Part shown: piece by piece, positions 49,876 to 50,808 of the stretch
How positions within the stretch are numbered: position 1 is the first letter of the stretch
Layout: the number at the start of each line of letters is the position of its first letter
DNA from: Escherichia coli
GTDB taxonomy: Bacteria; Pseudomonadota; Gammaproteobacteria; Enterobacterales; Enterobacteriaceae
DNA: 64,000 nucleotides
Strand: one strand, 5' to 3'
NCBI RefSeq assembly: GCF_003991155.1
Contig: NZ_CP031293.1
Position numbers and translations under genes: made by a program
The notes under the pieces: model-generated
The model's database searches: none
Seen by the model: only the letters and a program-made list of their open reading frames with translations
Told to the model about the DNA's origin: nothing

Positions 49876-50808
49876 ATGCGTTTCCGCCAGTTGTTACCGC
49901 TTTTTGGCGCGCTGTTTGCGTTGTATATCATTTGGGGCTCAACCTATTTTGTCATTCGGATTGGAGTGGAAAGCTGGCCTCCATTAATGATGGCGGGCGT
50001 TCGATTCCTGGCAGCCGGTATTTTATTGCTGGCATTTTTGCTACTGCGCGGACACAAACTTCCCCCGCCACGTCCGCTGCTCAATGCCGTGCTGATTGGC
50101 CTGTTATTGCTGGCTGTCGGTAATGGCATGGTGACGGTTGCCGAACATCAAAATGTTCCTTCCGGCATCGCCGCCGTAGTGGTTGCAACCGTGCCCCTCT
50201 TTACCCTGTGCTTCAGCCGCCTGTTTGGCATTAAAACGCGCAAACTGGAATGGGTGGGTATCGCCATTGGGCTTGCCGGAATCATCATGCTCAATAGCGG
50301 TGGAAACTTAAGCGGCAATCCGTGGGGCGCGATTCTTATTTTAATCGGCTCGATTAGCTGGGCGTTTGGCTCGGTTTATGGCTCGGTTTATGGCTCGCGC
50401 ATTACCTTACCTGTAGGGATGATGGCGGGTGCGATTGAGATGCTGGCGGCTGGCGTGGTGTTAATGATTGCGTCGATGATTGCGGGTGAAAAACTGACGG
50501 CGCTCCCTTCCCTTTCAGGCTTCCTTGCGGTCGGCTATCTGGCGCTGTTTGGTTCGATTATCGCCATTAACGCTTATATGTATTTAATCCGCAACGTCAG
50601 TCCGGCTCTCGCCACCAGCTACGCCTACGTTAACCCGGTGGTTGCGGTCTTGCTGGGTACGGGACTGGGCGGCGAAACGCTGTCGAAGATTGAATGGCTG
50701 GCGCTCGGCGTGATTGTCTTCGCGGTGGTACTGGTCACGTTGGGAAAATATCTCTTCCCGGCCAAACCCGTTGTCGCGCCAGTTATTCAGGATGCATCAA
50801 GCGAGTAA
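49876..50808 (+). CDS. yedA: EamA/DMT-family inner membrane transporter YedA
   Basis: 310-aa polytopic ORF; contains a 12-bp in-frame tandem duplication (see findings). Confidence 0.9.
   Translation: MRFRQLLPLFGALFALYIIWGSTYFVIRIGVESWPPLMMAGVRFLAAGILLLAFLLLRGHKLPPPRPLLNAVLIGLLLLAVGNGMVTVAEHQNVPSGIAAVVVATVPLFTLCFSRLFGIKTRKLEWVGIAIGLAGIIMLNSGGNLSGNPWGAILILIGSISWAFGSVYGSVYGSRITLPVGMMAGAIEMLAAGVVLMIASMIAGEKLTALPSLSGFLAVGYLALFGSIIAINAYMYLIRNVSPALATSYAYVNPVVAVLLGTGLGGETLSKIEWLALGVIVFAVVLVTLGKYLFPAKPVVAPVIQDASSE

Follow-up and report, generated by a model that had tools for sequence, protein, structure and literature searches.

The yedA gene of Escherichia coli lies at 49876-50808 on the + strand of the 64,000-nt stretch of contig NZ_CP031293.1 that was analysed here (the window). 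It comprises 933 nt including the stop codon and encodes a 310-amino-acid-residue protein, which the open reading frame (ORF) list, Pfam, RefSeq, AlphaFold and Foldseek assign to the drug/metabolite exporters of the EamA/DMT family. A gene identical to window yedA is annotated by RefSeq as intact 'drug/metabolite exporter YedA' (WP_061092998.1) in E. coli 2016C-3878 (NZ_CP029747.1).

Window yedA contains a 12-bp tandem repeat. In the window sequence, ggctcggtttat occupies 50368-50379 and recurs at 50380-50391; directly after it, at 50392-50397, stands ggctcg. The copies are perfect and stand head to tail with nothing in between. On the + strand, the first GGCTCGGTTTAT unit encodes Gly165-Ser-Val-Tyr168, the second Gly169-Ser-Val-Tyr172 and the partial third copy, GGCTCG, Gly173-Ser174. 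The array is in frame with the + strand ORF and encodes GSVYGSVYGS, residues 165-174, which lie within the sixth hydrophobic segment of YedA. Direct reading also places three TGGCTCG 7-mers on the + strand, 12 bp apart, at 50367-50373, 50379-50385 and 50391-50397. The ancestral allele, described below, has two of these 7-mers and the same partial copy.

Tandem Repeats Finder returned one array at 50367-50397, with a period of 12, 2.6 copies, 100% matches and 0% indels, and this was the sole array in the window at a score of at least 50. An exact-periodicity scan (period 7-60, at least 2.5 copies) likewise detected only the yedA array in the window and none in 20 shuffles. The array is well beyond chance expectation.

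The yedA gene of K-12 MG1655 is 921 nt long and encodes 306 residues, with one GSVY followed by GS. One of the two 12-bp copies in the window is therefore extra relative to single-copy alleles. Relative to the 306-residue reference, the duplication is described as c.499_510dup, p.Val167_Ser170dup, a notation equivalent to a duplication of Gly165-Tyr168. The first-pass annotation, made from the sequence alone, had reported a 12-bp tandem repeat with a partial third copy, a GSVYGSVYGS peptide in a predicted membrane segment, and a protein of 310 residues here against 306 with a single unit in K-12. All three statements were borne out, by sequence reading and Tandem Repeats Finder for the repeat, by the sixth hydrophobic segment and the end of modelled helix 6 for the peptide, and by the K-12 gene for the lengths.

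Copy number across genomes and the carrying clone

A sample of 5,426 complete E. coli genomes was used to tabulate repeat copy number, as had been proposed with the first description of the repeat, and full-length yedA was present in 5,362 of them. The 933-nt form was found in 31 of the 5,362, and all 31 were 100% identical to the window allele; the remainder were single-copy. A 39-nt query across the junction (50362-50400) was also searched, for which single-copy genomes offer no 28-nt exact word as required by megablast. It matched those same 31 of the 5,426 genomes and none of the other 5,395. No copy-number state other than one unit (1.5 copies) or two units (2.5 copies) was found, and there was no three-copy form. 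When both possible junctions were queried against the 5,426 complete genomes, no duplication was detected on the K-12-type TCA allele. The junction expected of a reciprocal 12-bp deletion had no match in complete E. coli genomes. Copy number was constant within the carriers (31/31). The exact 310-residue protein was further found on 425 contigs in a larger protein collection.

Other YedA lengths in the protein collection (287-305, 309 and 310 residues) were considered as possible further copy-number variants and rejected. They are due to unrelated in-frame deletions, local frameshifts and alternative starts, with no gain or loss of GSVY.

A single unit is present in the YedA proteins of E. albertii and Citrobacter, in other close YedA proteins, and in 100 of 100 full-length representatives at 33-72% identity. 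Since the outgroups, K-12 and the 100 homologues are single-copy, one unit is the ancestral state, from which the two-copy form derives. The possibility raised in the first-pass annotation, that two copies are the majority and ancestral arrangement in E. coli, is contradicted by their presence in only 31 of 5,362 genomes.

A sister allele was found in nine other genomes. In TCM3e1 this allele differs from that of the window in two respects only: it lacks one unit, and it has a synonymous single-nucleotide polymorphism (SNP) at 49965 on the + strand (gene position 90; Gly30), where the window has A and both the sister allele and K-12 have C. Over 3,921 nt including the flanks, this SNP is the sole difference between the window and TCM3e1 besides the duplication. 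Because the sister allele is otherwise nearly identical, the duplication arose in place on that allele. The nine sister-allele genomes are absent from the closest genomes over the 25 kb at 38000-62999, which indicates that the region is mosaic among lineages.

Over window positions 38000-62999 (25 kb), identity of at least 99.7% is reached by the same 31 carriers and no other genome, the next tier being at 98.7%; the carriers are therefore one clone. Their sources, spread over several countries, are humans, cattle, pigs, poultry, sheep, dogs, a cat, a mink, wastewater and surface water. Four have been published as sequence type 457 (ST457): AR13438 (PMC10100771), CREC-544 (PMC9860340), and MRY15-117 and MRY15-131, the latter two with PacBio and MiSeq data (PMC5430464). 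Two of the carriers, TL20 and NZ_CM192843.1, reach no more than 99.7% identity across this 25-kb region, although their yedA is identical to that of the window. They may represent a diverged sub-lineage, or their flanks may have partly recombined.

Origin of the duplication

The analysis establishes how the repeat is built, that two copies are the derived state, that they arose once and that copy number has not varied further. We consider it very probable that a single historical 12-bp tandem duplication took place in situ in the yedA gene of the ancestor of the ST457 lineage and has been stably inherited since. The sister allele reads TTT-GGCTCG-GTTTAT-GGCTCG-CGC, in which TGGCTCG occurs twice, 12 bp apart, and the stretch GGCTCG-GTTTAT-GGCTCG encodes Gly-Ser-Val-Tyr-Gly-Ser. 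The spacing of these parental 7-mers equals the duplicated length. Two TGGCTCG motifs 12 bp apart are a classic substrate for replication slippage. During such an event, the end of the nascent strand, after copying the second TGGCTCG, would re-pair with the first TGGCTCG on the template. This backward slip would cause 12 nt to be copied twice and would yield the three 7-mers that start at 50367, 50379 and 50391. Unequal sister-strand exchange between the 7-mers would be an alternative route to the same product. The product stays in frame, and the protein is lengthened from 306 to 310 residues.

The ancestral context, TTTGGCTCGGTTTATGGCTCGCGC, is present in TCM3e1 and is exact in ~3,555 single-copy genomes. 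The perfect 7-mer context is the majority state, these ~3,555 genomes being exact over a 67-nt stretch; the first 7-mer of K-12 is imperfect (TGGCTCA). The difference lies in the Ser codon at gene position 498 (window 50373), which is TCG in the window and in about two-thirds of complete E. coli, and TCA in K-12. The TCG form turns the flanking direct repeat from a 6-mer into a perfect 7-mer.

Three points weigh against this account of the origin. The slippage step was not directly observed and is read from the anatomy of the array. Although ~3,555 single-copy genomes have the 7-mer context, fixation of the duplication is seen only once. The ST457 label rests on the published types of 4 of the 31 carriers. 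With a common substrate and one fixation, the site does not qualify as a hotspot, and fixation by chance as the clone expanded suffices to explain the distribution. Judged by its sequence, the array has the marks of slipped-strand mutation, namely perfect copies, matching parental direct repeats and a derived state. The suggestion of the first-pass annotation, a slipped-strand length polymorphism in a transporter gene, is supported with one qualification. The change is an in-frame duplication, with a single unit ancestral as seen in K-12, the sister allele and the outgroups; it is not actively varying, there being two states, each fixed in its lineage.

The CTGG hotspot of lacI, reportedly described by Farabaugh et al. 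in 1978 and associated with the Streisinger model, is said to undergo slipped-strand duplications and deletions. Likewise, the yedA duplication is perfect and head to tail, its unit equals the spacing of two parental short direct repeats, and it contains no foreign DNA. The lacI hotspot differs in that a 4-bp unit, which shifts the frame, is often gained or lost, whereas the yedA unit is 12 bp and in frame, is flanked by a 7-bp repeat, and was duplicated once in 5,426 genomes with no reversion. Duplications of 12 bp in ftsI, said to have been reported by Alm et al. in 2015, reportedly give rise to the four-residue YRIN and YRIK insertions in E. coli PBP3. In both cases a 12-bp in-frame tandem duplication makes a conserved E. 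coli protein four residues longer, and both are associated with particular clones. In contrast to the PBP3 insertions, which recur in several lineages and have a proven beta-lactam phenotype, the yedA insertion has one origin and no known phenotype.

Location of the insert in YedA and its possible functional effect

Pfam EamA (PF00892) was matched in two stretches of YedA (E = 1.8e-43; 148.5 bits against a cut-off of 28.2). AlphaFold models of both alleles were built from an alignment of the 100 homologues. The model of the derived allele has a predicted local distance difference test (pLDDT) value of 91.7 and 10 transmembrane helices, and that of the ancestral allele has a pLDDT of 93.1. No match was obtained when PDB chains were searched with the YedA sequence at E values up to 0.01, so a fold search was required for the link to YddG. 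Foldseek matched the derived model to YddG (5I20) at a TM-score of 0.75-0.82, and also to LicB, a triose-phosphate translocator and CMP-sialic acid transporters, with a probability of 1.00. The likeness to the DMT exporter YddG (PDB 5I20) thus consists of two EamA repeats and a predicted 10-helix fold that superposes over this range of scores.

Helix 6, the first helix of the second EamA repeat, starts at residue 149 in both models and ends at residue 169 in the ancestral and residue 173 in the derived one. The boundaries of the other nine helices are unchanged between the two models after a 4-residue offset. As modelled, the insert adds one helical turn to transmembrane helix 6 at its C-terminus; the window helix thereby exceeds that of all 100 homologues examined by four residues. 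K/R-rich loops precede transmembrane helices 1, 3, 5 and 7; by the positive-inside rule, the end of helix 6 is cytoplasmic.

The segment around the insert is conserved, Trp162 being retained in 95 of 100 homologues and Gly165 in 93. The duplication may be placed anywhere within the repeat. In the right-most placement, the extra VYGS stands between ancestral Ser170 and Arg171, at the helix-loop boundary. The insert is then one residue from a loop of 6-14 residues, in which 30 of 100 homologues differ from the modal length of 7. The evidence is mixed: the insert would disturb a segment of invariant length, but at its edge, the place where added residues are most likely to be accommodated.

On balance, we lean towards the view that the 310-residue YedA still folds and that the change is neutral or mildly impairing. 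Several observations weigh against this view. The spacing from Trp162 to Arg171 is 8 residues in 99 of 100 homologues and 12 in the window protein. The mean pLDDT of the ten-residue block drops from ~95 to ~85 in the derived model. The invariant spacing and the pLDDT drop are together compatible with impaired function, and AlphaFold is an unreliable judge of the effects of insertions. The intact annotation in RefSeq speaks for the favoured view. The intact, identical allele in 31/31 genomes carries little weight, the clone being too uniform for a lack of decay to say much.

The main alternative, possible though not the outcome we favour, is that the duplication inactivates or strongly impairs YedA, which would leave the clone with a cryptic loss-of-function allele of an exporter it can dispense with. 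In favour of this, the segment that takes up the insert has the same length in 99 of 100 homologues, the insert adjoins the highly conserved Trp162 and Gly165, and local model confidence is lower in the derived allele. The occurrence of other rare in-frame yedA deletions in E. coli isolates also suggests that damage to the gene is non-lethal. Set against inactivation are the intact reading frame, the identical allele without secondary lesions in 31 genomes, the right-most placement at the helix-loop boundary beside the variable 6-14-residue loop, and the full 10-helix fold retained in the model. The clone is too young for the lack of decay to be informative either way.

The rare in-frame yedA deletions remove 10-19 residues (P0109, P0112, P0116, P0118, P0123, P0129 and P0132) and are mostly present on 1-3 contigs; in one example GNPWGAILILI is lost at the start of helix 6. 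They hint that the gene tolerates damage at the population level and are consistent with a dispensable gene.

It is unlikely that the four-residue insertion is adaptive, for instance in gating or substrate range, and was selected during the emergence of ST457. The insertion is fixed in a clone that has spread globally in humans, livestock, pets and wastewater. Helix 6 is also equivalent, by alignment of the internal repeats, to helix 1, which bears the only invariant Trp of the family (Trp20). However, selected indels usually recur, and this one has a single origin, with no recurrence in 5,395 other genomes despite the common slippage substrate. There is no known phenotype, no literature linking yedA with ST457 was found, and hitch-hiking in clonal expansion explains the fixation equally well. 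A broader proposal drawn by analogy, in which the extension of helix 6 would alter gating or substrate range or would abolish export, and would have been selected in the emergence of the multi-host, multidrug-resistant ST457, is if anything a little more improbable.

A hypermutable contingency locus with frequent copy-number switching is highly improbable and effectively refuted. The array is a perfect tandem repeat within a membrane-protein gene, but it neither varies in copy number among very close relatives nor is built to switch expression. Only two states exist, 2.5 copies in 31/31 genomes of the clone and 1.5 in all others. A 12-nt unit does not switch the frame, the 306- and 310-residue ORFs are both intact, and the copies are too few for high slippage rates.

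The chance that the two-copy form stems from an error in sequencing or assembly is negligible, and so is the chance that it is the original state, reduced elsewhere to one copy. Assembly error is excluded because many laboratories obtained the allele, with the same junction each time, in 31 genomes finished independently of one another, and because the exact protein occurs on the 425 contigs; PacBio plus Illumina data underlie at least two of the 31 assemblies. All outgroups and the 100 distant homologues are single-copy.

Genomic surroundings and significance

The window is the reverse complement of positions 1630524-1694523 of E. coli 2016C-3878 (NZ_CP029747.1), from which it departs at 3 of its 64,000 nt (8134, 22970 and 23922). 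Being nearly identical to that genome, it is ordinary E. coli chromosome of the ST457 clone. It spans motA and flhDC, through ara, ots and fli genes, to yedA, zinT and an integrase. The neighbours of yedA are yedI (48786-49703), vsr (50797-51267) and dcm (51248-52666), all on the - strand. The gene order yodC-yedI-yedA-vsr-dcm is the same in the window and K-12, and besides the insert the two yedA genes differ by 24 nucleotides and 2 amino acids. By sequence and synteny, window yedA can be taken as the orthologue of K-12 yedA. The convergent yedA and vsr overlap by their last 12 bp (50797-50808), and the start of vsr lies 20 bp inside the end of dcm (51248-51267). K-12 is annotated with the same yedA/vsr/dcm overlaps, so they are unrelated to the duplication.

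An unnamed intact porin gene is located at 54399-55472 (+), between hchA and drpB. At this position K-12 presumably carries the disrupted porin pseudogene yedS. An integrase fragment at 32869-33018 (+), a pseudogene without an N-terminus, lies between fliE and yedK. Past zinT, a full tyrosine recombinase gene starts and continues beyond the window end (63103-64000, +). The fragment and the recombinase gene suggest remnants or borders of integrated elements.

YedA is a non-essential and poorly characterised exporter. No substrate is established in the searchable literature. A transposon-sequencing table of K. pneumoniae lists yedA as a weak fitness factor in bacteraemia, and an E. coli transcriptome paper reports that yedA is down-regulated, with nothing further. 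The 'yedA' of one preprint was rejected; it is a pecM-like gene of Tn1721 and not true yedA.

The yedA duplication is a real, routine in-frame indel, an instance of a well-known kind of mutation. It is a fixed marker of a single clone and not an actively variable polymorphism. The junction at 50362-50400 (31/31 carriers and 0/5,395 others) is a candidate marker, by polymerase chain reaction or k-mers, for the ST457 clone, a lineage that is emerging, multidrug-resistant and common to wildlife, livestock and humans. If the adaptive explanation were true, the change in yedA would parallel the 12-bp ftsI duplications that reshaped PBP3. With four residues naturally inserted at the end of a DMT helix of otherwise invariant length, the allele may be used for testing the tolerance of helix 6 to changes in length in exporters of the YedA/YddG type.
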